DNA of 64,000 bases. Origin: Candidatus Hydrogenedentota bacterium. GTDB taxonomy: Bacteria; UBA8481; J006. How positions within the stretch are numbered: the first letter of the stretch is position 1; the number at the start of each line of letters is the position of its first letter. Shown piece by piece: positions 709 to 21,877 of this stretch. Below the pieces are notes generated by a model. The model was not told the DNA's origin and ran no database searches. It saw nothing but the letters and a program-made list of their open reading frames with translations. The translations under genes and the position numbers were made by a program. The stretch covers positions 17,562-81,561 of the forward strand of contig RFFU01000074.1 in assembly GCA_003697085.1 (NCBI GenBank), written 5' to 3'.

Positions 709-1584
709 TTATTGGTCAGAGTCCGATCCGGAAGAGGACACTTTTGCGGCGAGGCATCCAGTGAGAAGAAGCAGCGGCCACGCCAATGGTGAGGCGTAGA
801 GACGTTCGGGAGGCCAGAGCAGAGGCGAAACATCCTGTCGGGCAATGAAAAAGAGCGGCGAGGATTTCATCAGAAAGATCCACGCGCTGTGAAGGCCGAC
901 GGAGCGTCCGAGGCGGCCGGTGGCGACGAGGGGAAGCGCCAAGGCGATTCCCGTGCAGAAGAGGCCGAAGGCTTCGGGAGGAATCTGTTGGCCGGGGCGG
1001 ATACGAAGAAAGTGAATCGCGCTGAAGAAAAGGCTCCCGAGAAGAATGCCGGCGGTGCTTCCACCAGAACGAACGAGGATTCCCGTGAGATACCCTCGCA
1101 TGAAGAACTCCTCGGAGAAGGCTATGATCAGGGCGGCGAGAAGATTTTCGAGAAGGCGGAAGGCGAGATCTCCGAGGGTGCGATTGAAACCGAAAAAGGC
1201 CGCGCCGAAAAGGATTCGAAGACCAAGGAAGAAAAGAAAAGGCACCAGACCGAGACGGAATCCGCGGAGGATATCTCCGGTGAGCGCGGAGGAGGGAGCG
1301 AGGCCGACCCGGTTCCAGCCCTCGGGAAAGGTGAAAGTGTAATGAAGGGCGGCCCCGAGAGCCGAGAGAGCCGCGAGGCGGGTAAAGATGCGTTCCGGAG
1401 TGAACGTAGGAAAAAGGGGATGAAGAAGCAACGCGAGAAAAACTGACCCGACCAGAGCGGCGGCGACGCCGGCGAGAAGATGGTGCAATTCGCGACGCCG
1501 CATCCTTGTATTGGCGTTTGAATTCATCCCACCTCCCGGTTGTCGGAAAGGAAGGATTCTATCTTTTGCCCGCGTTCCAAACAA
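709..1584 (-). CDS. CPBP family intramembrane glutamic endopeptidase (CAAX protease / bacteriocin-immunity Abi-like)
   Basis: Multi-TM protein with the diagnostic motifs EEFFMRGYL (EExxxR) and FSAIHF (FxxxH) spaced as in CPBP/Abi proteins. Confidence 0.75.
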   Translation of the reverse strand: MFGTRAKDRILPFRQPGGGMNSNANTRMRRRELHHLLAGVAAALVGSVFLALLLHPLFPTFTPERIFTRLAALSALGAALHYTFTFPEGWNRVGLAPSSALTGDILRGFRLGLVPFLFFLGLRILFGAAFFGFNRTLGDLAFRLLENLLAALIIAFSEEFFMRGYLTGILVRSGGSTAGILLGSLFFSAIHFLRIRPGQQIPPEAFGLFCTGIALALPLVATGRLGRSVGLHSAWIFLMKSSPLFFIARQDVSPLLWPPERLYASPLAWPLLLLTGCLAAKVSSSGSDSDQ

Positions 1585-4659: not shown

Positions 4660-5930
4660 TCGGAGAAACCATCCGCTGTTTCCGCGGAAAGAAATGCGAG
4701 ATATTTCCCGACGATCTTTTCCCAACTGTAATGGTTCCGGACGAAAAGGGTGGCGCGGCGTTGTTGTTCGATAGCGTGGTCGGTGTCGAACGAGAGTATC
4801 TCGTTGATTTTTCCGGCCAGTGCCTCGACATCGGCCGGCGGGAAGTAGTAGGCCCCTTCTCCCTCCTGGACGGCCCCGATGTTTCCTCCGACCTCACTGA
4901 CCAACGCGATCGTTCCACAGGCCATTGCTTCAAGGGCGATCGTGGCGGATCCTTCCGTGTCTCCTCGGCTGTCGATGCAGGAGGGGAGAACAAAAAGGTC
5001 GGCGCTTCGCATCCAATCGACGATTTCTTCCTCGGGAATGGGACCGGGCATGATGACGTCGTTTTCGAGACATAATCTTCTCTTCAGAGCCTCCAGTTCA
5101 TTTTGCAAAGGGCCGTCGCCACCGAGAAGGAGACACGCATCGGGATGTTCTTTTTTTACCGCCGGCATCGCCTCCAAAAGGTATCGGTGCCCTTTCCTCT
5201 CAACCATTCTTCCCGTGAAGAAGAGAACTTTCCTGCCGAAGATTTTATATCTTTCGAGAAGGGTGAGGTTGGGAGGTCCTGGAGAATAATAAGCCGTATC
5301 GATGCCATCCGGGATGATCTTGGGGCGGATGCCCGGCGCCACTCGTTCGAGGGCGTCGGCCGTGTTTTTGCTGATGGCAACGAGAAGATCGGCGCCCCGA
5401 GCGCTCATGCGAACGAAAGGTTTGAGAAAAGTCCAGCGGCCGGAATCGAGCGGAAAAATCTCGGCTCCATACGCCGTGATGATCAGCGTGCGACCCGTCA
5501 TTCGTTTGATGAGATAACCGATGAATCCGGGAGGAAACGCCCAGTGGGCATTGATATAACGGATTCTGTTTTCTTGAACGATTCGATAGGCGGTCCAGAA
5601 GAGTCTGAAAAAATAGAACGGAACCTGAAGGAGGCACCACGGGTGACGAATGTTTTCGGGGATTCCGGCGCCCGAGGTGAGTGTCTCCCAGCCGGATACG
5701 AAATAATGAAATCGGTGGATGTTCACACCGTCGACTTTGGCGAAGAGTGCCGTACCGGGTTCGGCGTGAGTCACGACATGAACGGCAAATCCGGCGGAAA
5801 CGAAACTCTTCGCCGCGTGATGGACGAACTTCCCCTTCGGAAGTCTCTTTGAATCGCGGACAAAGGAAGGATAGGAGGTTGTCAGAATACAGAGGGAGCG
5901 TTGGGAGTGCCCGGCGTGGAGAGTCGTCAC
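4656..5930 (-). CDS. Glycosyltransferase family 1 (GT4-like, retaining GT-B)
   Basis: C-terminal GT1 signature ...LLLGGDGPLQNELEAL...ADLFVLPS...EGSATIALEAMACGTIALVSEVGG... (EX7E-type motif). Confidence 0.8.
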   Translation of the reverse strand: MTTLHAGHSQRSLCILTTSYPSFVRDSKRLPKGKFVHHAAKSFVSAGFAVHVVTHAEPGTALFAKVDGVNIHRFHYFVSGWETLTSGAGIPENIRHPWCLLQVPFYFFRLFWTAYRIVQENRIRYINAHWAFPPGFIGYLIKRMTGRTLIITAYGAEIFPLDSGRWTFLKPFVRMSARGADLLVAISKNTADALERVAPGIRPKIIPDGIDTAYYSPGPPNLTLLERYKIFGRKVLFFTGRMVERKGHRYLLEAMPAVKKEHPDACLLLGGDGPLQNELEALKRRLCLENDVIMPGPIPEEEIVDWMRSADLFVLPSCIDSRGDTEGSATIALEAMACGTIALVSEVGGNIGAVQEGEGAYYFPPADVEALAGKINEILSFDTDHAIEQQRRATLFVRNHYSWEKIVGKYLAFLSAETADGFSE

Positions 5931-6487
5931 GAGAATTCCACGAAATGAATGGAAACCGAATCAATGGATCGACGGGATTTTCCCAACACGGATTTCCTTC
6001 TCATCCTCCCGGCGATGAGGGTAGCAAGCCGCCAGGGGGCGGGCAACCGATAAAGCGCCGGAAGGAATGCGGCGTAAAGTCGGTCCCTTGTGTCAATCCT
6101 GTTCTTCATTCCATCGAGTCCCCGTCTCATCTTCGCGGAGCCCTTCGTGGAGGAGGCCGGCCGGGTTCTCTCCCCCGGTGTCATTCCGAGCGAGGCGGAG
6201 CGAAGCAACGCCGACGAGGAATCCCCCATGAGTGCCATCCAGCGCATAGCGCGGGGTTCTTACCTGCGGAAATTCGCTTCATAGAGCGGCCAACCCTGGG
6301 AACGCAGGCATCCTGCCTGCATGGAAGGGATGGAACGTAGACTTTTCAGTCCACGCGAGTGAAACGCGGACTCTCCCGTCCGGGGAACGACGCGGCAAAG
6401 TTCGGCACAAATGCCCCCTCTTTGCCTCGCAACCGCGGAACCGCGGGGTTTGTTGCGAAAAGAACACCTCCCTCTTATACTTGATTT

Positions 6488-7474
6488 ATGTATCAAAAAC
6501 AGCGGATCGCGCTGGTTATTCCGGCTCACAACGAAGAGAAACTCATCGGAGATACGTTGCGGGGGGTTCCGGAACTTGTGGACGATATCTACGTAATTGA
6601 CGACGGTTCCACGGACGCGACCTCGGAATGCGCAAGGAAAGTCGGAGACCGCCGGGTCGTGGTCATTCGGAAGGAGAAGAACGAGGGAGTGGGAGCTGCG
6701 ATCGTTACGGGCTACAAGGTTGCCTTTGAGAGAGGCGCCGATATCGCCGTCGTGGTTGGTGGCGATAACCAGATGGACCTGGCGGAGATCGAGAATTTTC
6801 TTCGACCGATCATCGAGGGAGCGGCGGATTACACGAAAGGCAATCGGTTTCTCGATCCCTCCGGGACTTTCGAAAGAATGCCGACCGTCCGGCTCTTCGG
6901 AAATGCCTTGATTTCGGCGATGTGTAAATTGGCTTCCGGTTATTTCAAAGTTTATGATGCGGTGGACGGTTACACGGCGCTGTCGAGATATGGATTCGAG
7001 CAAGTTCGATGGAAGAAGGTCTGGAAGGGATATGGATATCCTTTGGACTTTCTCATTCGTCTCAATACTGCAGGACTTCGGGTAATGGATGTGCCGCGAC
7101 GCGCAATTTACCTTTCCGGGGTCCGACAATCCCAGATTCACGGTTTCTCGTATGCAATTCACGTGTTCCCGATGCTTCTGCGGGGTTTCTTTCGGCGACT
7201 GCTTTACAAATATATTCTTCGAGATTTCCATCCGCTCGTCTTCTTTTATTTGCTGGGGCTCTTCCTGGTTCCGGCGGGATTCGTTTTTGGCCTCTACCTC
7301 GTTTGGCAGCAGGCAAGCGGGATCGGCGTCTCCGGCCCCCGTGCCGTTTTGTGCGCCTTGGCGATCTTGATAGGAGTGCAATCCTTCTTCTTCGCCATCG
7401 CTTTCGAAATCCTGCATCAAGAATCCCCCGGAAACCGACGCCAAGAAGGTCGTTCGAAGCGACAATCGTTATGA
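6488..7474 (+). CDS. Glycosyltransferase family 2 with C-terminal TM helices (polyprenyl-phosphate sugar transferase / DPM-synthase-like)
   Basis: IALVIPAHNEEKLIGDTL...IYVIDDGSTDAT... (GT2 DxD context). The C-terminal ~90 aa are hydrophobic (2 TM). The gene is co-directional and only 137 nt upstream of the first precursor peptide gene. Confidence 0.8.
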   Translation: MYQKQRIALVIPAHNEEKLIGDTLRGVPELVDDIYVIDDGSTDATSECARKVGDRRVVVIRKEKNEGVGAAIVTGYKVAFERGADIAVVVGGDNQMDLAEIENFLRPIIEGAADYTKGNRFLDPSGTFERMPTVRLFGNALISAMCKLASGYFKVYDAVDGYTALSRYGFEQVRWKKVWKGYGYPLDFLIRLNTAGLRVMDVPRRAIYLSGVRQSQIHGFSYAIHVFPMLLRGFFRRLLYKYILRDFHPLVFFYLLGLFLVPAGFVFGLYLVWQQASGIGVSGPRAVLCALAILIGVQSFFFAIAFEILHQESPGNRRQEGRSKRQSL

Positions 7475-7573
7475 GAAAACGTTTTGAGAAAATCTTTCGT
7501 AAAAAAAATCACCGACTTCACCCCTTGCGAATCTTTTTCGATCCGGCTTTATTTTTCGATAGAGAGAAGAAAC

Positions 7574-7611
7574 GATTCTCCGCAATCGGGGAGAAAGGAG
7601 AGGTGAAAACG
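7574..7611 (+). promoter_or_regulatory. Conserved 5' leader with stem-loop plus Shine-Dalgarno (GGAGAGG) in front of precursor gene 1
   Basis: gattctccgcaatcggggagaaaGGAGAGGtgaaaacg. The palindrome TCTCC-gcaatcgg-GGAGA sits immediately 5' of the RBS. A near-identical copy precedes gene 2 at 7791..7828. Confidence 0.5.
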
Positions 7612-7758
7612 ATGGCGGAAAAGGAAGCTGAGAAGGTTGAGTCGGATTCCGGGAAGGAGCCGGAGAGGAAAGAGGAGGAGGCGCTTTCCGAGGAGGAGAT
7701 GCGGAAGGTGACGGGGGGACGACTCTTTGGAAATTCGATCGCCGGGCGGGTGCTATGA
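7612..7758 (+). CDS. Short precursor peptide with a double-glycine leader (48 aa: 36-aa leader + 12-aa core RLFGNSIAGRVL)
   Basis: MAEKEAEKVESDSGKEPERKEEEALSEEEMRKVTGG|RLFGNSIAGRVL. The LSxxEMxxVxGG motif matches the consensus recognised by C39 peptidase-ABC exporters. Strong RBS 7 nt upstream. Paralogous leader in the next gene. In the ORF track this is the in-frame tail of the spurious 7009..7758 ORF. Confidence 0.75.
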   Translation: MAEKEAEKVESDSGKEPERKEEEALSEEEMRKVTGGRLFGNSIAGRVL

Positions 7759-7790
7759 CTCGAGTGCTCTTCTTAAATGAGGGCGGAAAT

Positions 7791-7828
7791 GATTCCCCGC
7801 AGTCGGGGAGAAAGGAGAGGTGAAAAGG
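7791..7828 (+). promoter_or_regulatory. Second copy of the conserved 5' leader (hairpin CCCCG-cagt-CGGGG plus GGAGAGG RBS)
   Basis: gattccccgcagtcggggagaaaGGAGAGGtgaaaagg is 34/38 identical to 7574..7611. Confidence 0.5.
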
Positions 7829-8515
7829 ATGGCGGAAAAGGAAGACGGGAAGGCAAAAGCCGACAAAGAGAAGGAACCGGAAAGAAAACCGGAGGAACCC
7901 CTTTCGGAGGAGGAGATGAAGGATGTGGCGGGAGGGTTTATTCCCACTCCGGCCACTTTCGGGAATCCCCTTTCGTCCCGGATGGCGTCGAGATTGCGTC
8001 GGCGCGGCGCGGTCGGTCCGGTCGATCCCGAGGAGGCGGTCTCACGCGGTCCGGTCGATCCCGAACAAAGCCGGCGTCCCGACGATCCGAAACACCCGTG
8101 GCACCTTTGCTTCGGCCCGGAGACGCTGGTTCCAACGCGGAAGGGCTATCAGCCTATTTCTGGGATCGCAGTCGGTGACGAGATCGTCAGTGTCACCTTC
8201 GACGGAACCTTGTTCGTCGATCGGGTCGAAAAGCTGGACGTTCACCACGGGGAGATTTCCGTGATCGAACTTTCGTTGGACGACGACGTGATTCTCGTCA
8301 CTCCTGACCATAAGGTCTGGTCGGGCGAGAAATGGATCCGAGCCGCCGACTCGATCTATGTTTCCCGGACGAAGGTGGGAAGAATCGTTCCGGCGGTCTA
8401 TAACCTTCGAACCACCACGGGAACATACCTGGTCGGATACAGCGGACTGCTCGTTTCAGGTGGGCGGGTGGAAGACCTGCATTCCGAGGATCCGGTGGCG
8501 GAGGTTGCTCGGTAG
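7829..8515 (+). CDS. Precursor protein of 228 aa: double-glycine leader (36 aa), 57-aa core, and a C-terminal Hedgehog/intein-type Hint autoprocessing domain
   Basis: MAEKEDGKAKADKEKEPERKPEEPLSEEEMKDVAGG|FIPTPATFGNPLSSRMASRLRRRGAVGPVDPEEAVSRGPVDPEQSRRPDDPKHPWHL|CFGPETLVPTRKGYQPISGIAVGDEIVSV...ILVTPDHKVWS...VPAVYNLRTTTGTYLVGYSGLLVSGG. Hint block A begins with Cys (codon 8108..8110; compare CFTPES in Hedgehog). Block B is T-x-x-H (VTPDHKV). Block F/G-like VYNL..TGTYLV is present, but there is no terminal His-Asn. The track ORF starts at an in-frame GTG at 7820; the ATG at 7829 with an RBS matches gene 1. Confidence 0.75.
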   Translation: MAEKEDGKAKADKEKEPERKPEEPLSEEEMKDVAGGFIPTPATFGNPLSSRMASRLRRRGAVGPVDPEEAVSRGPVDPEQSRRPDDPKHPWHLCFGPETLVPTRKGYQPISGIAVGDEIVSVTFDGTLFVDRVEKLDVHHGEISVIELSLDDDVILVTPDHKVWSGEKWIRAADSIYVSRTKVGRIVPAVYNLRTTTGTYLVGYSGLLVSGGRVEDLHSEDPVAEVAR

Positions 8516-8549
8516 GAATGTCTTCACCTGACAATTCCTGAAGTTCCCG

Positions 8550-8590
8550 AAGGAGGGCGTGTTTTCGGAACCGTCCTCCTTTTCTTTTTT
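8550..8590 (+). terminator. Rho-independent terminator after the precursor genes
   Basis: aaggagggcg-tgttttcggaac-cgtcctcctt forms a 10-bp stem (one G-U pair) followed by tttctttttt. Confidence 0.55.
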
Positions 8591-8739: not shown

Positions 8740-10986
8740 TTACCCTTGTTGGAACGGTTCCCCCGGCGCTGCCTCCGCCATACGCTCGAGAAAATAGACC
8801 GCCGGGCCGTCGTAGGGAAGTCGTCGTGCGACCTCGGTGATCGATTCCTTGGCACGGGCGACGTCCTTTTCGCGGTAGGCTCGAACGCCCTTCTCCCACG
8901 TTTCCATAACCTCCAGGTAACTCTTCGGGAGCCGTGCGGTTTCATCCACAAGTTCGTAAACATCCAACGCGGCTTTCTGTCCCCGAAGCCGAAAGACTCC
9001 GACGGTACGGAAATAGAACCGGTTTGGAGCGCACTTTTCGACCTCTTGCTTCGTCTCTCCGGACGTCAGGATTGTCGTGCCGAGATCGCGGTTGAGACTT
9101 TCGAGCCGCGAGGCGATATTGACCGTCGTGCCGATGACCGTGTAATCGAAGATCGTTTCGGAACCGAGGTTTCCGGCCACGACTTCGCCTGTATGGATTC
9201 CGATTCGAATGCCGAGATTTGGCCACACTCCGCTGGCCCACGTCTGGGCCAGCTCCGCCACCGCCCGCCGCTTTTCCAGGGCGCAGGAACAGGCGAGCAC
9301 GGCGTGCTTCTCCTGGTGAAGAGGGACGTTCCATTCGGCCATCACCGCGTCGCCGATCATCTTGTCGATCGTTCCGTCGAACGCGACGATCTTCTCGGTC
9401 ATCCTCGTGAAGTAGGTGTTGAGGAAGCGGACCAGATCTTCCGACGGCAACTCCATCGCCCACCGACTGAAGTGTTTGATATCCGAAAAGAGGACGGTCG
9501 CCGTCGTCTTTCGACCGACGAGTGTCAGCGCCGAGGGGTCCTTCAGGATCTCCCGCATTACGGAGGGGGCGACGTATTTCTGAAAGGCCAATCGCAGCCT
9601 CCGTTTCTCCTCGAACTGGTGATAGGTCCAGTCCGACAGGAGGAAGATGCTGGAGGCGAGCAAGGGAGCCGCGACCGGAAGAAGAAAGCCTTTGTTCATC
9701 AGTACTGCGGCGGCTCCCAGAAGAAGAACGCCACTTCCCGCCAAGGATGTCACTCCCCAAACCAGATTGCGGCGCATCCCCCACCATGCAAGAAACGCCG
9801 TGAGGACCGTAAGCAGCCAACCGAGCCACCTTGGAGGGAGCCGGAGGGAGGTGGGATCGAGCAGGGTTGCCGTGGCGTTTGCCAAAATCCGAGTGTAAGG
9901 AAGGGAAACGCCCAAGGGAGTCCGAATCCTCTTCCGAGCGGGACCGATCAAAACGATTCGCCCGGAAAAACGGTCCCGCGACAGCCGTTTCGGCGCGTTA
10001 TCGAAAGCCGCGTCGTGCCACAGGTCGGCGAAGGAAAGCGGTTCCCCTGGAAAGACCTCGAAACGTCCCGCCCGATCCTTTCGATTCCGTTTCGGGTTTC
10101 GGTAATAGTTGACCAGGATGGTTTCGTCCGCATTGGCGGCGCTTTGCTCCCCGAGATTCCGGAGGAGCGAACATCGTGCGCGCCCGTTTCCAGTAAACCC
10201 ACCGGAGTTGCCGGAGAGAGAAGCCGTCCAACCGGCGATCGCCAACGGCAGAGACGGGAAGAAAACGCCCTTGACCTGGAGCCAGAGTGGGAATCCCATC
10301 GTGGGGCGTTCCGGGCGCCGAAAAGCAAGGAAGCCGATCTCCGTTTTCGGAGTCGATACGCGGGACGAGGGAAAAGAGACGCTCGGAACGGAAAGAATTT
10401 TCTTCGGGGGGGTGGAAAAGGAACAGGCGGCCGCGTCGAGTACGGCGGCTTGTTGCCGGTTTGAATTCGCGAAGCCCGAGTCGATTCGGAGAGGCAGGAT
10501 GTTGGGGATTCGATCGAGCGCACTTCGAAAGGAGGCATCCTGTTCTCGGGAGAAGAGGACGGGAAATTCCGCCACGAAGGTTTCGAGTTGGCTCTCTTGT
10601 TCGGCGAGGTGTTTTCGGAGCGCGTCACGGAAGATCGTTGAATTGAGTTTGACGGGAACTTCGTCCAGTACGAAGGGAATGTGGAACGCGACCCCCTGGG
10701 CCCCGTTCTCCGCGAGATATTCGACCACCTTCGCAAAAACACTTCTCGGCCAAGGAGGTTCTCCCATTTCGGGCTTCAGTCTTCGCAAACTTTCGTCATC
10801 GATTTCCACGACCGTGAGGGGCAACTCCGTGGTCGTTTCCCGGTAATGACGGCGTATCCGAAACGCGATGGTTTCTTCCTCGAGACCCTGAACGAGATAG
10901 AACGGGTCCAAGAGGACGAAGAGGACGATCACCGCGAGAAGAAGGGTGCTCGAGTGAGAGAAGTTCTTGACCGACCTAAGAATCAT
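8740..10986 (-). CDS. CHASE2 sensor domain-containing class III adenylate/guanylate cyclase
   Basis: N-terminal signal/TM, a large periplasmic region and several TM helices typical of CHASE2. C-terminal cyclase catalytic domain VLFSDIKHFSRWAMEL...FDGTIDKMIGDAVMAEWNVP...IRIGIHTGEVVAGNLGSE...YTVIGTTVNIASRLESL. Confidence 0.85.
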   Translation of the reverse strand: MILRSVKNFSHSSTLLLAVIVLFVLLDPFYLVQGLEEETIAFRIRRHYRETTTELPLTVVEIDDESLRRLKPEMGEPPWPRSVFAKVVEYLAENGAQGVAFHIPFVLDEVPVKLNSTIFRDALRKHLAEQESQLETFVAEFPVLFSREQDASFRSALDRIPNILPLRIDSGFANSNRQQAAVLDAAACSFSTPPKKILSVPSVSFPSSRVSTPKTEIGFLAFRRPERPTMGFPLWLQVKGVFFPSLPLAIAGWTASLSGNSGGFTGNGRARCSLLRNLGEQSAANADETILVNYYRNPKRNRKDRAGRFEVFPGEPLSFADLWHDAAFDNAPKRLSRDRFSGRIVLIGPARKRIRTPLGVSLPYTRILANATATLLDPTSLRLPPRWLGWLLTVLTAFLAWWGMRRNLVWGVTSLAGSGVLLLGAAAVLMNKGFLLPVAAPLLASSIFLLSDWTYHQFEEKRRLRLAFQKYVAPSVMREILKDPSALTLVGRKTTATVLFSDIKHFSRWAMELPSEDLVRFLNTYFTRMTEKIVAFDGTIDKMIGDAVMAEWNVPLHQEKHAVLACSCALEKRRAVAELAQTWASGVWPNLGIRIGIHTGEVVAGNLGSETIFDYTVIGTTVNIASRLESLNRDLGTTILTSGETKQEVEKCAPNRFYFRTVGVFRLRGQKAALDVYELVDETARLPKSYLEVMETWEKGVRAYREKDVARAKESITEVARRLPYDGPAVYFLERMAEAAPGEPFQQG

Positions 10987-11129: not shown

Positions 11130-11590
11130 TGCGTGGAGCGCGGATTCACCAGTCTGCGGATGGCCGAACCGCTCTGCACAGGTTGGAGAACCTGCGGCCC
11201 ATCCTTGCAGGCAAGATGCGTGCGCTCCGAGGGAGCGTAGACTCTCCAGTCTGCGAATTGCTAATTCGCCCTCCGTGGAAGGGGCTGGTTAGCGCTGGTG
11301 GGGGATTCCTCGTCGGCGTCGCTTCGCGCCGCCTCTCTCGGAATGACACAAGGGGGGAGCGAAGCGACACACTGTTGTCATCCCGAGTTCGCCTCAAGGC
11401 GAACGACGGATCTCCCCAACGCGGTATTCCGCATTGCGAACCGATCGGTGCCTGTGGGGGATTCCTCGGCGCTAATGCGCCTCGGACTGACAGGCCGATC
11501 CGGCTCCATGTTCGCCGTGTTACGGAGCGCGGAGACTCCTGTCTGCGAATTCAGCGATCCGTCGCTCGCCGCCGACCGCACCTGTGCATT
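11130..11590. repeat. Composite intergenic repeat element (module A in reverse orientation plus two module B copies)
   Basis: 11180-11245 caggttggagaacctgcggcccatccttgcaggcaagatgcgtgcgctcc is the reverse complement of module A. 11296-11345 and 11455-11480 carry gtgggggattcctcg...ctcggaatgaca (module B). Confidence 0.7.
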
Positions 11591-13007: not shown

Positions 13008-13286
13008 GTGGTGCGGGAGATCGTCGGCGAGGCGGCCAAGGTCGAGGGAATCGCCTGGGTCGTCCTTTTCGGTTCCCGCGGCCGGGGGGATCATAATCGC
13101 CGTTCGGATTATGATATCGCAATCTCGGCACCGTTGTTGTCCAGGCAAGATTGGACGTTCTTCGCCTCCCACCTTCGGGATACGGTCCGAACTCTCTGTT
13201 GTCTCGATTTGGTCCGTTGGGAAGATCCCCTCGATCCCGAATTGAGAAGAGAGATCGAACGAGGAATCCGGGTTTACGCGGCGTGA
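13008..13286 (+). CDS. Nucleotidyltransferase-domain antitoxin (MntA-like, type VII TA)
   Basis: VVLFGSRGRGDHNRRSDYDIAI is the minimal NTase fold GS-x9-13-DxD motif; 92 aa. Confidence 0.75.
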   Translation: MVREIVGEAAKVEGIAWVVLFGSRGRGDHNRRSDYDIAISAPLLSRQDWTFFASHLRDTVRTLCCLDLVRWEDPLDPELRREIERGIRVYAA

Positions 13287-13687
13287 ATCGCCTTTCGTCC
13301 TCGATCGAGAACCTGAAATTGGCCTTCGCCGCGCTCGAACGGTTGCTGAAAACCCCCGTCACAGAACCACGCGATCTTTCCGGTATCGTGAAGGATTTCG
13401 AGATCGTCTATGAATTGAGTTGGAAGACCTTGAAAAAATTCCTCGAAAGCGAGGGCCATTCCCCTCGTTCAGCCAGGGAAGCCTTCCTTTTGGCCTTTCA
13501 ACTCGGATACCTGGAGGATGATCGGGTCTGGGTCGAGATGATCGAAGACCGAAACCTCACGGGACACACTTATAATCAACCTTTTGCAGCCTCTTTGGTG
13601 AAGCGGATACGGGAGAAGTATCTCCCCGCTTTGGCGGGACTAAGGAATACGATCGTCTCAGAGAGGGAAAACCAGACCAATCGTTGA
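13283..13687 (+). CDS. HepT-like toxin (nucleotidyltransferase substrate-binding protein, HI0074 family)
   Basis: Overlaps the MntA stop (GTGA). Contains the Rx4HxY motif (RNLTGHTY) near the C-terminus. The in-frame GTG at 13283 is taken as the start. Confidence 0.7.
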   Translation: MNRLSSSIENLKLAFAALERLLKTPVTEPRDLSGIVKDFEIVYELSWKTLKKFLESEGHSPRSAREAFLLAFQLGYLEDDRVWVEMIEDRNLTGHTYNQPFAASLVKRIREKYLPALAGLRNTIVSERENQTNR

Positions 13688-14309: not shown

Positions 14310-14660
14310 CCCCCCTGTCCTTCCGAGGAGGCCGAAGGCCAACGAGGAATCCCCCGCGGGAGCGAAACCGGCCCCCTGGAAGTATGGCGAAAAACGGGCA
14401 CCGTTTGTCGGATCGTGTCCGTCCACTCCGGCGCGAAACCCCGCATGGGATCGGGACGGGCGAAAGGTGACCCTCTGCGAACCCGTTTTTGCAGGCAAGA
14501 TGCCTGCCTGTCGGCAGGCAGGCCCGCGCTCCCAGGACACGCTTCCCATTCCCTTTTCGTTTCCCTTCCCCATTCCCTTTTTTTTGCCCTTGCCTTTGCC
14601 CTTGCCCTTCCCGCGTGATACTCCGTGGAGGGGATTCCTCAATCGCCTTACGGCGATTTT
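14310..14660. repeat. Composite intergenic repeat element (modules B, A and C in reverse orientation)
   Basis: 14320-14345 cgaggaatccccc (module B). 14488-14545 gcaggcaagatgcctgcctgtcggcaggcaggcccgcgctcccagga (module A). 14545-14620 ttcccattcccttttcgtttcccttccccattcccttttttttgcccttgcctttgcccttgcccttccc (module C, pyrimidine strand). Confidence 0.7.
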
Positions 14661-14875: not shown

Positions 14876-15496
14876 ATGATAGGTTGGGAAACGATGCGAA
14901 AGGTCCTTTTCATTCTCGGGCTCCTGACGGATCAGGATGTTGAACGCCTCGGGAGGCTGGGGTCCATCGAGAAGATTTCAGCGGGAGCGACGTTGATAGA
15001 AGCGGGGCGTCATCCCGACAAGGTCTATTTCATACTCAGCGGTATTTTTCGTGTTACGCGGAACGCTGCCGTCGGTACGGAGGGGGCGAGCGAGGGGGCG
15101 GTGGGTTCGAAAAACGTCGTGGCGGAACTGCGCGCGGGTGAAGTATTGGGGGAGATGTCGTTCGTTCAAGATGCGCCGCCGACGGAGACGGTCACGGCGG
15201 TCGGGGAGGGTGAGGTCTTGGCGATACCCCGCGAGGACCTCCGCGCCGTTCTCGAATCGGATCCCGCTTTCGCCTCGCGTTTTTATCAAGCCATCGCCGC
15301 TTTTCTTGCGGATCGCCTGCGCGGAACGATGAACCGGCTCTATGGGAGGCCGACGGAAACGGCGGGAGCGGGAGACGATGACTCGGAGAGAGGAACGATT
15401 CTCGAAGAGGACGAGTTGGATCCCCGCGTTCTTGATCGTGTTTCGCGTGCCGGAGAACGATTCGACCGATTGCTCAAGAAGTTCCGCGGGAGATAA
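14876..15496 (+). CDS. Cyclic nucleotide-binding domain protein (CAP-effector-domain family, no HTH)
   Basis: ...KVYFILSGIFRVT...RAGEVLGEMSFVQDAPPTETVTAVGEGEVLAIPREDL... is the canonical cNMP-binding beta-roll signature (G-E-x-S/A ... R-T-A-T-V-like). First gene of the exporter operon. Confidence 0.8.
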   Translation: MIGWETMRKVLFILGLLTDQDVERLGRLGSIEKISAGATLIEAGRHPDKVYFILSGIFRVTRNAAVGTEGASEGAVGSKNVVAELRAGEVLGEMSFVQDAPPTETVTAVGEGEVLAIPREDLRAVLESDPAFASRFYQAIAAFLADRLRGTMNRLYGRPTETAGAGDDDSERGTILEEDELDPRVLDRVSRAGERFDRLLKKFRGR

Positions 15497-15501
15497 GACG
15501 T

Positions 15502-16746
15502 ATGGTCGAATATCGCAAGGCGGCGCTCGATAAACTTGCTTCCCCCGAGCAACTCGACCGTCTCATTACGGTCACCGGTTCCCGTAGTTGGCTCGCTCTG
15601 GGCTCCATCTGTTTTCTTCTTCTCCTGATCCTCGTTTGGAGTGTCGTCGGGCGGATCCCCGTCACCGTCTCGGGACGCGGAATCCTGATCCGGGAGGGGG
15701 GGTTGGTTGAGATCGAGAGTCTGGGGACGGGATTAATTTCGGAGCTCCTGGTGGAGGAAGGGGATCACGTGGAGCCGGGCCAGCTGGTCGCTCGGATCCG
15801 ACAACCGACGCTCGTAACGGAGATCGAACAAGCGCGGGATCGGGTGCAGGAGCTCGAGGTGCAGCGGGAACGGACTTCGAAGCTAGAGTCGGAACGTGTC
15901 CGGCTGGGGGCCGCCGCGCTCGACCAACAGGAGGCGGAATTGCGAGGAACGATCCGCACCTCTCGGGAACGTGTTGCGTGGTTGGAGAAGCGGGTGGAGG
16001 CCTATCGCGATGCTGTTCGCGAGGGGCTGATCACGGAGGAGGAGTTGCGGCGGGTGATGAAGGAACGGGCGAGCGAGCGGGAGGTGATCGCGCGGGCCGA
16101 ATCCCGTCTCAAGAAGATCGCGTCGGATCGCCAAGCGCTGGAGACCGAGCGGGAGCGAAATCTTCTTGCGATCGACAAACAGCTCAGCGACGCCCGGCGG
16201 ACGCTGGCGGCTTTGGAGTCGCGGCTTCGCGAGGAAGGGCAGGTGTTTTCTCCGCACCGGGGCCGGGTCGTGGAGATCAAGGTCGAGCAAGGAGCGATTG
16301 TGACGAGGAACGCGGCCCTGATGAGTCTCGAGGCGGAAACGGGCCCGCTGGTCGCCGAGGTTTTCATTCCGGTCGAGGCGAAGAAGATACGCCGTGGGAT
16401 GGCGGCGCGGATCGCTCCCGCCACGGTGAAAAAGGAAGAGTACGGGATGATTGTCGGGCGCGTGGACGGTGTCTCGGCGCTTCCCGCCACGCGGGAAGGG
16501 ATGATGCATCTTTTGAAGAACGAATTGTTGGTCAAAGAACTGGCTTCGCGCGGCGCCCCCTTCCGTGTCACGTTGTCGCTCGAGGAGGATTCGGCGAGTT
16601 TCAGCGGTTTCCGATGGACCTCCTCGCGCGGGCCGAGAGTGCGGATCGAAAGCGGGATGCTCTGCGAGGGACGGATCGTCGTGGAGAAGAAGGCGCCGAT
16701 CCGCTTTCTTATTCCGGCGCTCAAGTCCTTCTTCGGCATAACGTAA
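15502..16746 (+). CDS. HlyD-family membrane fusion protein (bacteriocin-type / NHLM-type secretion adaptor)
   Basis: N-terminal cytoplasmic stretch, single TM (WLALGSICFLLLLILVWSVV), then long coiled-coil and beta-barrel hairpin regions typical of type I secretion MFPs. 6 nt downstream of the cNMP-binding gene. Confidence 0.8.
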   Translation: MVEYRKAALDKLASPEQLDRLITVTGSRSWLALGSICFLLLLILVWSVVGRIPVTVSGRGILIREGGLVEIESLGTGLISELLVEEGDHVEPGQLVARIRQPTLVTEIEQARDRVQELEVQRERTSKLESERVRLGAAALDQQEAELRGTIRTSRERVAWLEKRVEAYRDAVREGLITEEELRRVMKERASEREVIARAESRLKKIASDRQALETERERNLLAIDKQLSDARRTLAALESRLREEGQVFSPHRGRVVEIKVEQGAIVTRNAALMSLEAETGPLVAEVFIPVEAKKIRRGMAARIAPATVKKEEYGMIVGRVDGVSALPATREGMMHLLKNELLVKELASRGAPFRVTLSLEEDSASFSGFRWTSSRGPRVRIESGMLCEGRIVVEKKAPIRFLIPALKSFFGIT

Positions 16747-16757
16747 CTCGGAGAACG

Positions 16758-18962
16758 ATGGCTGTCGCCGCCGCGGAAGGTATCAAACCGTCTTCGGGAA
16801 AACCGCGGTTCCGTCGTGTCCGAACGCCGACGGTTCTTCAGATGGAGGCGGTGGAGTGCGGCGCGGCATCGCTGGCGATTATTCTCGAGTATTACGGCCG
16901 CGTGGTTCCGCTCGAGGAACTTCGCGTCGCATGCGGGGTGACGCGGGACGGAAGCAACGCCTTTCATTTGATCTCGGCTGCGCGGGAGTACGGATTCGAA
17001 GCCCACGGATACCGAAAGGACATTCCCCACCTCTACAACATCAAACCGCCCTTCATCATCTTCTGGAACTTCAACCATTTTTTGGTCGTCGAGGGATTGG
17101 CCAAGGATCGCGTTTTTCTCAACGATCCCGCGATGGGACCGCGCGTCGTTCCGATGGACGAATTCAACGAGTCCTACACCGGCGTTGTTCTGACCTTTGA
17201 ACCGACGCCGCGCTTCAGGAGAGGGGGACGCCGTCCGAGCCTGTCAGCGGCGGTCTGGAACCGCGTACGCCACTCTTCCGAAGGCATCGCCTACGCCGCT
17301 GTGGCGGCCGTCGCGCTCGTCGGCCCCGGATTGGCGGTTCCCGCCTTTTCGCGGATCTTCATCGATGACATTCTCATCGGCGGAATGCACGACTGGATCC
17401 GTCCCGTCCTGCTCGGTTTGGCGATCACTGGGTTTTTTCGCGTCTTTCTTACCTTTCTCCAGTCCCATTCTCTTCTTCGGCTCGAAACGAAACTTTCGAT
17501 CACCCAGACCGGTCGCTTTTTGCACCATATCCTTCATCTTCCCGTCTCGTTCTACCAGCAGCGTTACGGCGGAGAAATCAGCAACCGAGTCGGTTTCAAT
17601 TCGGACATCGCCCGCATCCTTTCGAACCGTCTCGCCGGAACGATCCTGGACCTTTTCATGACTGTCTTTTATGGAACGGTTCTCTTTCTGCTTTCTCCGG
17701 TGTTGATGCTGATTGCGGTTCTGGGAGTGGCCGCGAATGCCGTTACGGCTCGGACGATGCATCGGACCCTGACCGACGAGAACCTCCGTCTTCAGCAAGA
17801 GGCCGGAGCGACTTTGTCCGCGGCGATGTCCGGCGTGGCCTCGATCGAGACGCTGAAGGCGACGGGGAGCGAATCGGACTTCTTCGCGAACTGGGCGGGG
17901 CATCACGCGAAATACACGGTGACGATGCAAAACCTGAGTCTCAAAAGTGCTCTCTATTCCTCCCTCTCGACCCTCGTGAATTCCCTTTCGGACGTGGCGA
18001 TTCTGGGAGCCGGGGCCCTTCTGATTATGAACGGCCGCATCACGATGGGAACCTTTGTCGCCTTTCACGCGCTCTCCGCCTCCTTTGCGGGTCCGGTGAC
18101 GCGGATCATCAATCTCGCGACGGTGATTCAAGCCTTGCGCGCGCGCCTTGTCCGTCTCGACGACGTGCTCAATCACAAACACGCGCCGGACCTGCGGGTC
18201 GCGGAATCGACGCCGGTCGTTGCAGAAGAGGAAGAGAAACTTTCGGGACATCTCGAGATCCGCAATCTCACCTTCGGCTATTCGCGTTTCGATCCGCCGT
18301 TGATCGAGAATTTTTCGATGACGATCGCTCCGGGCGGGCGCGTGGCTTTGGTGGGGGCATCGGGATGCGGGAAATCGACATTGGCGAAACTGATCACCGG
18401 ATTGTACGAGCCGTGGGAGGGTGAGATTTATTTCGACGGACGTCCGCGAAAGGCGATCCCGCGTTCCGTGCTTACGAGCTCCGTTGCGATGGTGGATCAA
18501 GAGATTTCACTCTTTTCCGGAACCATTCGCGAGAACATTACACTTTGGGACGAGACGATTCCGGATATCGAAGTGGTGCGGGCGGCCAAGGATGCGGCGA
18601 TTCACTCCGAGATCACAGCGCGCGCGGGGGGATATGACGCGGAGTTGGAGGAGGGAGGAGCGAATCTTTCCGGCGGTCAACGCCAGAGGCTGGAGATCGC
18701 CCGGGCGCTCGTGACGAATCCTCGCCTGCTGATTCTGGACGAGGCGACCAGCGCTCTCGATCCCGTGACCGAGAAGGAGATCGATCGCAATCTGCGGGTG
18801 CGCGGTTGTACCTGCGTGATCGTCGCCCATCGGCTTTCGACGATTCGCGACGCGGACGAGATCATCGTCCTTGAACGCGGCCGGGTGGTTCAAAGGGGGA
18901 CGCACGAGGAATTGATCGCCGATCCGGACGCGCCGTATGCGCGATTGGTAAAGGCTCAATGA
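16758..18962 (+). CDS. Peptidase C39 domain-containing ABC transporter (double-glycine leader cleaving, bacteriocin exporter, peptidase/permease/ATPase)
   Basis: N-terminal C39 domain with catalytic Cys in MEAVECGAASLAIIL and His in FNHFLVVEG. Six-TM permease. C-terminal NBD with Walker A GASGCGKST, signature LSGGQRQRLEIARAL and Walker B LLILDEATSALD. The ATG at 16758 is used; the track ORF's upstream extension overlaps hlyD and is spurious. Confidence 0.88.
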   Translation: MAVAAAEGIKPSSGKPRFRRVRTPTVLQMEAVECGAASLAIILEYYGRVVPLEELRVACGVTRDGSNAFHLISAAREYGFEAHGYRKDIPHLYNIKPPFIIFWNFNHFLVVEGLAKDRVFLNDPAMGPRVVPMDEFNESYTGVVLTFEPTPRFRRGGRRPSLSAAVWNRVRHSSEGIAYAAVAAVALVGPGLAVPAFSRIFIDDILIGGMHDWIRPVLLGLAITGFFRVFLTFLQSHSLLRLETKLSITQTGRFLHHILHLPVSFYQQRYGGEISNRVGFNSDIARILSNRLAGTILDLFMTVFYGTVLFLLSPVLMLIAVLGVAANAVTARTMHRTLTDENLRLQQEAGATLSAAMSGVASIETLKATGSESDFFANWAGHHAKYTVTMQNLSLKSALYSSLSTLVNSLSDVAILGAGALLIMNGRITMGTFVAFHALSASFAGPVTRIINLATVIQALRARLVRLDDVLNHKHAPDLRVAESTPVVAEEEEKLSGHLEIRNLTFGYSRFDPPLIENFSMTIAPGGRVALVGASGCGKSTLAKLITGLYEPWEGEIYFDGRPRKAIPRSVLTSSVAMVDQEISLFSGTIRENITLWDETIPDIEVVRAAKDAAIHSEITARAGGYDAELEEGGANLSGGQRQRLEIARALVTNPRLLILDEATSALDPVTEKEIDRNLRVRGCTCVIVAHRLSTIRDADEIIVLERGRVVQRGTHEELIADPDAPYARLVKAQ

Positions 18963-21877
18963 CGGCGCGCGATCTGCTCGCGTCTCTCGCTCGGCTCGGT
19001 CCAGAACGGGATGTGAGCGGGAAGGAGACGTTCTACGTTCAGGGAGCCGAACGCGCGTGGGTCCTGACGAAAGGCGTTGTCGATGTCTTCGCGGTTATGC
19101 TCGAGGACGAGCGGCCCATCGGCCCGCGACATTACCTCTTCAGCGCCTCGCCGGGAATCATTCTCTTCGGTGTCGATCTTCTCCGCTACCACAAGCGTTG
19201 TGCTCTGTTGGCGGTCGGAGTTCCGGGAACGCGTGTTGTTTCCTTCGGCATCGCGGATTTGGTCGAGACGGCCCGGCGAAGTGGAACGCTGGAGGCGCTG
19301 GCGAGGCAGATTGAGGATTTTTCTGGAAAGGTAGGGGCGCTCTTCACCGCTCGTGAGCGGCCACCGTTCGATGAATTTCTCGCCGTGGGAGAGGAACGAG
19401 AGGTTCCGGCGGGTCGTGTTCTCGGAACGGAGCGCGGAATTACTTGGGTCCACGTGATCGGGGGGAAGGTCCGGCTCTGTGGTTTCGAGGATCTCGTCGT
19501 GGAGGCCGACGGCACCGCCGTTCCTCTCGCCCCGGGGCTTTGGCTCGAAACACTTATTGCGTCACATCTCGAGGTGATCGACAGCCGCGCGTTGCTTGAA
19601 CGCGATCCGCGCCTGAAGGCGTTGGGAAATTTGCAAGCCGTATATGTCCGATGGATCGAGGACCGCATCGCGGCGAAGCGGGCCGAGGAGCGGGAACGAA
19701 TTTCCCGGAGGCGTGAGCGGGATCAGGCGATTCTTGCCAAGGCTCTGGAGGATCTTAGCAGTGTTCTTGTCGGAAAAGGGCGCGCCGTGCCGGAGCACGA
19801 TCGTCCTCTGTTGGCCGCCTTGAATCGGATCGGCGCCGCGCTCGATTTGGATTTTCACCTTCCTTCGGAGTGGGAGTTGAGCCGGTACGGCGCCGCGCCT
19901 CTCGAGGCCATCTGCCGCCGTTCGCGGATCCGCCACCGGCGGGTGGCCCTTTACGGAGATTGGTATCGCCGGGACAACGGGCCGTTATTGGTCTTTCGAG
20001 ACAAGGAGCACGGGGCAACGCCCGTAGCCGCGGTTCCTCTTTCGGAGTCGCAGTACGAATACTTTGACCCTGTCACGGGAGCGACGGGGATTCTGACGCG
20101 GGATGTTGCCGCCACGCTCGATCCCTTCGGCGTGATGTTTTATCCTCCGCTTCCCGCAAAACCGCTTCACGTCTTTCAACTACTCAGACACGGAAGCCGG
20201 TTCGTTTCGAAGGACCTCCGGCGGGTGTTGGGGTTGAGTTTGGCGGCCGGCGCGCTTTCGCTGGCGTTGCCGTGGGCGACAGGGCTCCTTTTCAGCGACG
20301 TGATTCCTTCTTCCGAGCGACCGCTTCTTCTGCAGGTTGTTTTAGCGCTGTTGATCGCTTCTTCCGTCCAGACGCTCTTCCATTTCGTTCGCACGATTGC
20401 GCTGACGCGGATGCGGGCACGGTGGGGCGAGACGGTTCAGGCGGCGCTGTGGGACCGGATCGCTTCCTTGCCTCCGCGATTCTTCCGCCGCTTCACCGTC
20501 GGGGATCTCGTGGATCGCGCCGAGGTCGTGGATCACCTGCGCGAGGAACTCAGCGGCGCCGGGCTGACGGCCATCATCGGCGGGTTGATGTCGCTGATGC
20601 AATTTATTTTGATGTTCTACTATAGCCGGGTTCTCGCTCTGGGAGCCTTGGGAATCACGGCGCTCTTTGCTCTCGTGACCGGAGGCCTTGCCGTGGGAAT
20701 GCTGCGGTACGAGAGGGAGATGCAGAGGATCGCGGGGCGCCTCTCGGGTTTTCTTTACCAGGTGATCACCGGCATTGCCAAGATTCGGGTGGCGGGGGCC
20801 GAGGAACGGGCGTTTGCGGAATGGGCGCGACGGTTCCGCCGCGAACGCCTTCTCCGCTTCCGGGCCGGCTCCTACCAGAACATCATTCTCACCGTCAATG
20901 CCGGGCTGCCGATCCTTTCGACGATTCTCGTCTTTCTCCTTGTGCGTTATGCCGCGTTGCTCCCGGAGGGAGCCTGGATCAGTGTCGGGGATTTCATTGC
21001 CTTCAACGCCGCGATGACCGTCTTCCTCAACTCCGCGCTTTCGCTTACCGACACGGCGGTCAACCTTCTCAACCTCGTCCCGATGTTCGAACGCGTCGAG
21101 CCGATTCTTGTGACGGAGCCGGAAGCGCGGGAGGATCGGCCGGATCCGGGGCGCATCACCGGTTCTGTCGAGATGAGTCACGTTTCGTTTCGGTATCATC
21201 CCGACGGGCCGCTTGTTCTCGACGATGTTTCGTGGTCGGCGGCGCCCGGGGAGTTCGTTGCGTTGGTCGGGCCGTCCGGGGGAGGCAAATCGACGATCAT
21301 CCGGTTGTTGCTGGGATTCGAAATCCCGGAGACGGGAAACATCTATTTCGATGGGAGGGATGTATCGGCGGTGGACGTCACGGCGTTGCGGCGTCAGATC
21401 GGAGTCGTTCTCCAGAACAGCCGGCTCCGCCCCGGCTCGATCTTCGACAATATCGTCGGTTCCTCGAATCTTACCCTCGATGATGCCTGGCGTGTGGCCG
21501 AGCAGGCGGGTTTGAAGGAGGATATCGAGGCGATGCCGATGGGAATGCACACGAACATTTCCGAGGGAGGGACGACGTTTTCGGGGGGGCAGCGACAACG
21601 AATTCTGATCGCCCGCGCGCTGATTCATCAACCGCGAATCCTGATCTTCGACGAAGCGACGAGTGCCCTGGACAACACGACGCAGAAAGTCGTCTCCGAC
21701 AGTCTCGACCGTCTCAATGCAACGCGGATCGTGATCGCCCATCGCCTTTCGACGATCCGAAATGCCGACAGAATCTATGTAATCGAGAAGGGAAGGATTG
21801 TACAACGGGGAAACTACGAGGAATTGATGACGGAGGGAGGTCTATTCACCGACCTCGCGCGCCGTCAACTCGCTTAG
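18959..21877 (+). CDS. ABC transporter ATP-binding/permease with N-terminal cyclic nucleotide-binding-like domain (second component of the NHLM-type exporter)
   Basis: 972 aa. The N-terminal ~150 aa are cNMP-binding-like (ETFYVQGAERAWVLTKGVVDVF). Then a degenerate peptidase-like region, a 6-TM permease, and an NBD (GPSGGGKST; FSGGQRQRILIARAL; ILIFDEATSALD). ATGA start/stop overlap with the preceding gene. Confidence 0.85.
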   Translation: MTARDLLASLARLGPERDVSGKETFYVQGAERAWVLTKGVVDVFAVMLEDERPIGPRHYLFSASPGIILFGVDLLRYHKRCALLAVGVPGTRVVSFGIADLVETARRSGTLEALARQIEDFSGKVGALFTARERPPFDEFLAVGEEREVPAGRVLGTERGITWVHVIGGKVRLCGFEDLVVEADGTAVPLAPGLWLETLIASHLEVIDSRALLERDPRLKALGNLQAVYVRWIEDRIAAKRAEERERISRRRERDQAILAKALEDLSSVLVGKGRAVPEHDRPLLAALNRIGAALDLDFHLPSEWELSRYGAAPLEAICRRSRIRHRRVALYGDWYRRDNGPLLVFRDKEHGATPVAAVPLSESQYEYFDPVTGATGILTRDVAATLDPFGVMFYPPLPAKPLHVFQLLRHGSRFVSKDLRRVLGLSLAAGALSLALPWATGLLFSDVIPSSERPLLLQVVLALLIASSVQTLFHFVRTIALTRMRARWGETVQAALWDRIASLPPRFFRRFTVGDLVDRAEVVDHLREELSGAGLTAIIGGLMSLMQFILMFYYSRVLALGALGITALFALVTGGLAVGMLRYEREMQRIAGRLSGFLYQVITGIAKIRVAGAEERAFAEWARRFRRERLLRFRAGSYQNIILTVNAGLPILSTILVFLLVRYAALLPEGAWISVGDFIAFNAAMTVFLNSALSLTDTAVNLLNLVPMFERVEPILVTEPEAREDRPDPGRITGSVEMSHVSFRYHPDGPLVLDDVSWSAAPGEFVALVGPSGGGKSTIIRLLLGFEIPETGNIYFDGRDVSAVDVTALRRQIGVVLQNSRLRPGSIFDNIVGSSNLTLDDAWRVAEQAGLKEDIEAMPMGMHTNISEGGTTFSGGQRQRILIARALIHQPRILIFDEATSALDNTTQKVVSDSLDRLNATRIVIAHRLSTIRNADRIYVIEKGRIVQRGNYEELMTEGGLFTDLARRQLA

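Follow-up and report, generated by a model that had tools for sequence, protein, structure and literature searches.

On the evidence of its sequence, the interval 7612-7758 (+) in a 64,000-nt stretch of DNA from a Candidatus Hydrogenedentota metagenome-assembled genome (MAG; the whole stretch is called the window below) is a genuine gene of 48 codons, located directly 5' of the gene for a larger secreted-peptide precursor. It is an old, still-constrained partial copy of the front end of that neighbour; the two are referred to as gene 1 and gene 2. We propose that gene 1 specifies a second substrate of the C39 exporter encoded downstream and would give rise to a small secreted 12-mer, a reading that we hold with about as much confidence as doubt. 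Of the roles suggested in a first-pass annotation of the region, that of a second small exported product, putatively active, best fits the evidence: it agrees best with the signature of selection in the leader and with the signals for translation of the gene.

Gene 1 and its predicted product

The features of gene 1 and its upstream region are as follows:

7475-7571 (+), AT-rich spacer 3' of a glycosyltransferase gene, presumed to be the promoter region and wrongly placed inside the NCBI 95-aa model
7572-7611 (+), 5'UTR block, copy 1, 36/40 identical to 7789-7828, containing the Shine-Dalgarno sequence AAGGAGAGGTG
7612-7758 (+), gene 1 including the stop codon, by translation a 48-aa double-glycine precursor
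7612-7719 (+), gene 1 leader, 36 aa, with the C-terminal end LSEEEMRKVTGG
7720-7755 (+), gene 1 core, RLFGNSIAGRVL, 12 aa, charge +2, 1301.76 Da

Translation of 7612-7758 (+) yields MAEKEAEKVESDSGKEPERKEEEALSEEEMRKVTGG followed by RLFGNSIAGRVL and the stop codon. The GC content at the three codon positions (0.65/0.41/0.71) is that of genuine genes of the locus. The spacer before gene 1 was scanned for a sigma-70 consensus promoter and gave no match. The reading frame lies within a 249-aa ORF (7009-7758), where the first-pass annotation had described it as hidden; the further statement that gene callers would miss it holds in part, in that the ORF is annotated by NCBI whereas the true 48-aa form is absent from the annotation. 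The NCBI model is a 95-aa hypothetical protein (D6679_07455) starting at ATG 7471, which overlaps the stop codon of the glycosyltransferase gene (ATGA) and adds 47 residues; it is most likely a mis-called start. We judge this start to be wrong because the extension (7471-7611) is 40% GC compared with 59% for the window, and because it takes in the UTR/RBS block, which is noncoding ahead of gene 2, where the frame opens only at GTG 7820.

The core differs in three respects from its earlier description as an amphipathic peptide of ~1273 Da without Cys, Ser or Thr: a Ser sits at core position 6 (read from the sequence), the helical hydrophobic moment is 0.17, a value equalled or exceeded by 83% of shuffles, and the monoisotopic mass is 1301.76 Da.

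Gene 2 and related leader-Hint proteins

Gene 2 (7829-8515, +) begins 70 bases 3' of gene 1 and encodes a leader-core-BIL/Hint fusion of 228 aa (RMH56959.1, D6679_07460 of the Candidatus Hydrogenedentota MAG). Its parts are:

7789-7828 (+), 5'UTR block, copy 2, 36/40 identical to copy 1
7829-7936 (+), gene 2 leader, 36 aa, MAEKEDGKAKADKEKEPERKPEEPLSEEEMKDVAGG
7937-8107 (+), gene 2 core, 57 aa (residues 37-93, average mass 6342 Da), with a GPVDPE repeat and a DPKHP junction motif, predicted to be disordered
8108-8515 (+), C-terminal BIL/Hint domain of gene 2, from Cys94; the family profile matches PDB 2lwy (E = 1.5e-12)

The AF2 model of gene 2 has a pLDDT of ~90 over residues 90-215 and below 50 in the core, and its best Foldseek matches are Tetrahymena BIL2, 2lwy and hedgehog 1at0 (probability 1.00). 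Cys94, Thr158 and His161, i.e., the N-terminal Cys and the block-B TxxH, are invariant in the alignment of the gene 2 family; the Pfam model Hint_2 alone scores gene 2 under its gathering score. The family is small: a search of 1.84 billion cluster representatives gave 14 matches at E <= 1e-10. A DPKHPxxx↓CF junction is common to the members with a GG leader (P0002, P0003, P0005 and P0006), to a member with an NHLP-like leader (P0041) and to its tandem neighbour at locus L018. Precursors of the gene 2 type constitute a rare family in which a GG-type or NHLP-like leader and a disordered core are joined to a C-terminal BIL/Hint domain (L001, L003, L004, L005 and L018), and a search of a literature library for Hint or BIL domains combined with a leader peptide, RiPP, bacteriocin or C39 found no paper. 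At L018, the two tandem paralogues (5100-5771 and 5990-6631) both combine an NHLP-like leader with a core that has Cys/Ser/Thr residues, followed by a Hint domain at the C-terminus, and a P450 gene is present upstream of them. The gene 2 core has at ~8018-8064 an internal GPVDPE(E/Q) repeat from a near-exact DNA repeat (GGTCCGGTCGATCCCGA), whose counterpart in the peptide P0023 is a GPIDP repeat.

Hint-less members with cores of 34-49 aa are found alongside Hint-fused ones in two leader families, a recurring pattern that offers a precedent for the proposed Hint-less product of gene 1. P0023 (L002, 1980-2189), 69 aa long, stands alone, is equipped with an RBS and a terminator of its own and is homologous to the leader and core of gene 2. 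It ends four residues past a DPRFP motif, about where a Hint domain would cleave, which suggests that the Hint domain does no more than release the peptide or activate its C-terminus. The second leader type, MARIKIEDLP...GG (MARIKIEDLP..KEEM..V.GG), is carried both by Hint fusions and by Hint-less peptides of 60-76 aa; P0128, P0129 and P0130 (L019-L022) are isolated Hint-less peptides of this kind, and no exporter was detected within 10 kb of the L019 peptide. The five other leader-Hint loci (L001, L003, L004, L005 and L018, on short contigs) have no short partner gene. A degenerate DNA pattern for the peptide motif VYNLRT..GTYLVG was found at 12 loci, all in PVC-type MAGs or metagenome contigs, none of them with a GG leader or short partner.

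Tandem duplication and constraint on the gene 1 leader

Gene 1 and gene 2 form a 157-nt direct repeat (7562-7718 and 7779-7935) that is 77% identical in a constant register of 217 nt. In a tblastn search of the whole window, the sole match of gene 1 was gene 2 (E = 5e-13); the two therefore form a two-copy family and do not resemble each other by chance. No further leader copies were detected in the window by tblastn and a motif scan. The first-pass annotation had called the leaders homologous, and the repeat and the tblastn match confirm that they are paralogous; the 5'UTR/RBS segments are near-identical, as it had also stated, with 36 of 40 positions shared in the block 7572-7611 and 15 of 15 in codons 1-5. 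Over the UTR block and the first five codons together, 51 of 55 positions agree, many more than the average over the leader would give (P = 1.6e-4). The two sequences had further been said to diverge right after the GG, which places the end of the similarity too early: beyond a gap of 5 codons, FGNSIAGRV of gene 1 can be aligned to the gene 2 segment FGNPLSSRM (p = 0.0026 by shuffling, or ~0.016 once corrected for six targets). The gene 1 core retains in this segment residual homology to gene 2 core residues 44-52, and because of this alignment past the GG we take the copy to extend to ~17 core codons. Comparison with the cores of P0003 and P0006 was not significant (p = 0.31 and 0.88, respectively), both of which begin with R followed by L or F. 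The alignments identify gene 1 as a tandem duplicate of ~217 bp at the 5' end of a gene 2-like ancestral precursor gene; UTR and leader were copied together with ~17 codons from the start of the core, and a stop codon closes the copy.

Assembly of the MAG might have placed two strain variants of a leader region in tandem, the sequence being known from one metagenome-assembled contig. We find such an artefact scarcely credible: the copies are only 77% identical and differ in a mosaic, codon-position-specific manner, far beyond the strain variation that confuses assemblers, and unique sequence continues on both sides.

The leader pair has 14 synonymous differences at 21.2 sites (dS ~1.6, saturated) and 16 non-synonymous differences at 86.8 sites (dN 0.21), giving an omega of ~0.13, an estimate based on 36 low-complexity, E/K-rich codons. 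Identity at codon positions 1, 2 and 3 is 28, 29 and 21 of 36, respectively. Had the gene 1 branch been neutral, it would be expected to give ~43 non-synonymous differences by itself (P = 3e-9), or ~23 with pS at its lower 95% bound (P = 0.06); the probability that a neutral copy retains its start and is free of stops is 0.04-0.24, with indels ignored. The leader of gene 1 contains no stop codon, indel or start loss, and the Shine-Dalgarno sequence AAGGAGAGGTG, common to both genes, is the strongest of the locus. With no lesions seen and an omega of ~0.13, gene 1 does not have the appearance of the decaying duplicate that the first-pass annotation had named as the finding that would speak against its proposal.

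An intact partial duplicate may also be an evolutionary leftover, perhaps translated, whose 12-residue product has no role and whose leader constraint reflects a former function or conversion by gene 2. Only this MAG has the arrangement, the five leader-Hint loci named above being without a short partner, and the core corresponds to a piece of the gene 2 core that has been cut short and carries an indel; no Hint-less relative has so short a core. Gene conversion could account for the 51/55-identical 5' block, which fits a conversion tract; in codons 15-36, however, most differences are at third positions (counted from the alignment), which argues for protein-level constraint rather than conversion, and the leader is free of stops, indels and start loss although the synonymous sites are saturated. 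We therefore consider a functionless leftover unlikely, though an explanation to be taken seriously.

Probable co-transcription of the gene pair

One further element is located 3' of gene 2:

about 8549-8590 (+), intrinsic terminator, a GC-rich hairpin followed by UUUUCUUUUUU; predicted fold, z = -2.6 over 101 nt

Nothing comparable follows gene 1, and from this terminator 3' of gene 2 only we infer that a single transcript probably covers both genes. No attenuator-like or anti-terminator structure was found between the genes (fold of 7740-7800, z = +0.4). A conserved UTR hairpin was not significant (z = -2.0 in copy 1 and +0.5 in copy 2), and Rfam searches over the window and the locus detected only tRNAs elsewhere.

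These data bear on a second role that had been suggested for gene 1, that of a regulator or decoy. The leader would then be its functional part: by competing for the C39 domain or exporter, or by priming it, the leader would tune secretion of the gene 2 product; alternatively, the ORF would act as an upstream ORF affecting gene 2 expression. Such a role would agree with a minimal core, with a demonstrable constraint that is confined to the leader and translation signals, and with the identical strong RBS of both genes. The absence of terminator or anti-terminator structure between the genes argues against it, and the 70-nt spacer and gene 2's own RBS speak against translational coupling, so that we regard it as improbable. 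Leader-only decoys are not known to us from PCAT systems.

Predicted leader recognition and the exporter

The export genes lie 7-14 kb downstream of gene 1 on the same strand, ABC1 being ~9 kb downstream:

14876-15496 (+), cNMP-binding protein, bacteriocin-type-transport associated (PF00027, E = 4e-18; TIGR03896, 131.7 bits, below cutoff)
15502-16746 (+), NHLP-system HlyD-type adaptor (TIGR03794, 348 bits, above cutoff)
16758-18962 (+), ABC1, C39 peptidase/permease/ATPase (TIGR03796, 1027 bits, above cutoff; Peptidase_C39 PF03412, E = 4e-36)
18959-21877 (+), ABC2, second exporter subunit without a peptidase domain (TIGR03797, 876 bits, above cutoff)

The C39 domain of ABC1 is intact, the motifs QMEAVECG...NHF containing the catalytic Cys and His (read from the sequence). 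No informative Pfam domain was found in the N-terminal 280 aa of ABC2. The three-gene TIGR03794/03796/03797 cluster has been tied to families of paralogous precursors that are conserved only as far as the Gly-Gly, and cores that vary after the GG on paralogous leaders are the norm for this exporter family (PMC2887384). C39 domains of the ComA and LahT type read Leu-12, Glu-8, Leu-7 and Val-4 before the GG (PMC6363468). The corresponding residues of the gene 1 leader are L25(-12), E29(-8), M30(-7) and V33(-4), with Met instead of Leu at -7, and the predicted cleavage site is ...KVTGG↓R, the GG being residues 35-36. Gene 1 has three marks of a double-glycine substrate, i.e., the GG motif, the recognition residues and a C39 exporter in the same locus. 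Its earlier designation as a genuine short double-glycine precursor stands: start and RBS are intact, the leader is under purifying selection, the residues recognized by C39 are kept, and a C39 exporter is present in cis.

For the exported 12-mer we propose the following pathway. Genes 1 and 2 would be transcribed together, sharing the terminator 3' of gene 2, and each would be translated from the same strong ribosome-binding site. The acidic leader would be the address tag of the precursor; the C39 peptidase domain in the NHLP-type ABC exporter would read this tag, cut after Gly36 and export the linear cationic 12-mer RLFGNSIAGRVL. This peptide would correspond to the beginning of the gene 2 peptide in a truncated "short form" without a Hint domain and may be secreted beside the gene 2 peptide as a small co-product, its bioactivity, if any, being presumably bacteriocin-like or signalling. 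Several points count against the proposed 12-mer: the core appears fragment-like, is not helically amphipathic and is far below the 34-49 aa of the Hint-less members; homologues of gene 1 were found in none of the collections searched; and the exporter is ~7 kb off, behind an oppositely oriented cyclase gene.

That gene, a CHASE2-domain adenylate/guanylate cyclase (8740-10986, -), is situated between the precursor genes and the export operon, whose first gene is the one for the cNMP-binding protein (14876-15496, +). The cyclase and the cNMP-binding protein hint at cyclic-nucleotide control of secretion.

Other features were observed in the neighbourhood. Intergenic repeats of one family, whose core reads TGTCATTCCGAG...GACGAGGAATCCCCC and which has no Rfam match, occur at 6168-6254 (+), 11273-11359 (-), 14338-14374, ~29936 and ~40286; the copies at 6168-6254 and 11273-11359 form an 87-nt inverted pair (82% complementary) that flanks the glycosyltransferase gene, gene 1, gene 2 and the CHASE2 cyclase gene. 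A nucleotidyltransferase gene (Polbeta/NTP_transf_2, 13008-13286) followed by an NTase substrate-binding (HEPN-like) gene (~13286-13687) makes up a toxin-antitoxin-like pair between a PLD-like gene and the export operon. Six kb upstream, at 709-1584 (-), is a gene for a CPBP/Rce1-like intramembrane protease, a family often linked to bacteriocin immunity. Directly after the exporter, 21928-23367 (+) encodes a protein of 479 aa that has an FkbM methyltransferase domain at its C-terminal end and, in its N-terminal half, no informative Pfam domain.

Possible partner functions of the 12-mer

In a bolder proposal, which we think quite improbable, the 12-mer would be a working partner, either ligated to the gene 2 core via the BIL thioester or acting as an autoinducer for the CHASE2 cyclase. 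In the autoinducer variant, the extracytoplasmic CHASE2 domain (8740-10986, -) would sense the secreted 12-mer, and the resulting cAMP would gate the exporter via the cNMP-binding protein that opens the export operon. In the ligation variant, a ribosomal peptide would be made from two genes without ATP-dependent ligases.

Ligation in trans to the thioester-activated core of gene 2 had been put forward in the first-pass annotation. In detail, the 12-mer or its precursor would attack the thioester that the BIL/Hint domain of gene 2 forms at Leu93-Cys94, and would so be linked to the core of gene 2. The BIL/Hint domain at the end of gene 2 is bona fide, with Cys1 and TxxH, and the two genes are adjacent and probably co-expressed. 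Amine attack on the BIL thioester has a precedent in BIL2/BUBL, and the Tetrahymena BIL2, the closest solved fold, makes isopeptide bonds with amines of other proteins (PMC8616854). The gene 1 core, however, has neither Lys nor an N-terminal Cys, Ser or Thr, its alpha-amine would be blocked by the leader until export, and in the AF2 model the homologous segment of the core does not touch the Hint domain. P0023 suggests plain release of a free peptide, and no partner is present at any other leader-Hint locus examined. The proposal thus found no support, and we consider it very improbable.

Searches for relatives of gene 1

Searches of 5.8 billion proteins, of 1.84 billion cluster representatives, of JGI metagenomes and of GTDB genomes yielded no homologue of gene 1, and the exact 48-mer is absent from the protein collection searched. 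A profile made from gene 1, the N-terminus of gene 2 and P0023 retrieved only P0023 and gene 1's own 95-aa NCBI model; GTDB genomes and JGI metagenomes queried with gene 2 and the leader alignment yielded no relatives. The models NHLP TIGR03793 and N11P TIGR03798 gave no match to gene 1 or gene 2 at E <= 0.1. A class IIb two-peptide bacteriocin (lactococcin G/enterocin 1071 type) was rejected as a candidate, the scores being 16.8 and 14.1 bits where the cutoff is 37, with only residues 25-41 (the leader end) aligned. Among the neighbours of gene 1 that were scanned, there was no leader-dependent modifying enzyme (cyclodehydratase, LanM, radical SAM or similar), and the only possible modifiers were glycosyltransferases and the FkbM-type methyltransferase (21928-23367). 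No histidine kinase or response regulator of a ComC/BlpC-like quorum system was present among the genes scanned within 709-28364, where the CHASE2 cyclase and the cNMP-binding protein were found instead.

Significance of gene 1

Gene 1 adds one small double-glycine peptide that is mis-annotated by NCBI (a 95-aa model with a false start), and it shows that the leader of Hint-fused precursors also serves Hint-less peptides. Located next to a very rare leader-core-BIL/Hint architecture, it is a natural experiment and a ready control substrate for the contribution of the Hint domain, whether release, C-terminal activation or ligation. If the 12-mer were indeed a ligation partner or a signal for the CHASE2 cyclase, the locus would represent a new way to build or regulate secreted peptides.

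Comparison with known systems

Judged by sequence, gene 1 probably does not differ in function from other paralogous double-glycine precursors that belong to NHLP-type export systems. The NHLP/Nif11 tandem precursors and prochlorosins (PMC2887384) share with it the TIGR03794/03796/03797 exporter, a leader ending in GG, adjacent paralogues and cores that vary after the GG. The present leader differs from theirs in being 36 aa long, acidic and of low complexity and in matching neither TIGR03793 nor TIGR03798; furthermore, no TOMM or lanthionine enzyme is encoded near gene 1, and one paralogue of the pair has a BIL/Hint domain at its C-terminus.

The cores of peptide pheromones are short, about 17-27 aa. 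Gene 1 resembles the precursors of class II bacteriocins and pheromones in its small, linear and probably unmodified core, and in having L-12, E-8, a hydrophobic residue at -7 and V-4 before the GG (ComC/ComA and LahT; PMC6363468). In contrast to those examples, its core is shorter (12 aa) and no histidine kinase or response regulator is adjacent, and the host, a Hydrogenedentota MAG, is presumably diderm, with a HlyD-type adaptor.

P0023 and P0128-P0130 are similar to gene 1 in that one leader family bears both Hint-fused and stand-alone short members; their 34-49 aa cores, however, stand alone rather than in tandem with a Hint-fused copy, whereas the gene 1 core is a 12-aa fragment. The likeness to BIL and Hedgehog-type Hint domains (2lwy, 6y75 and 1at0) concerns gene 2 only (Cys1, TxxH and fold), gene 1 being without a Hint domain; its bearing on gene 1 is solely that the duplicated portion of gene 2 lies 5' of this domain. 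Gene 1 is an ordinary kind of gene in an unusual setting, and the more unusual object is the neighbouring Hint fusion.
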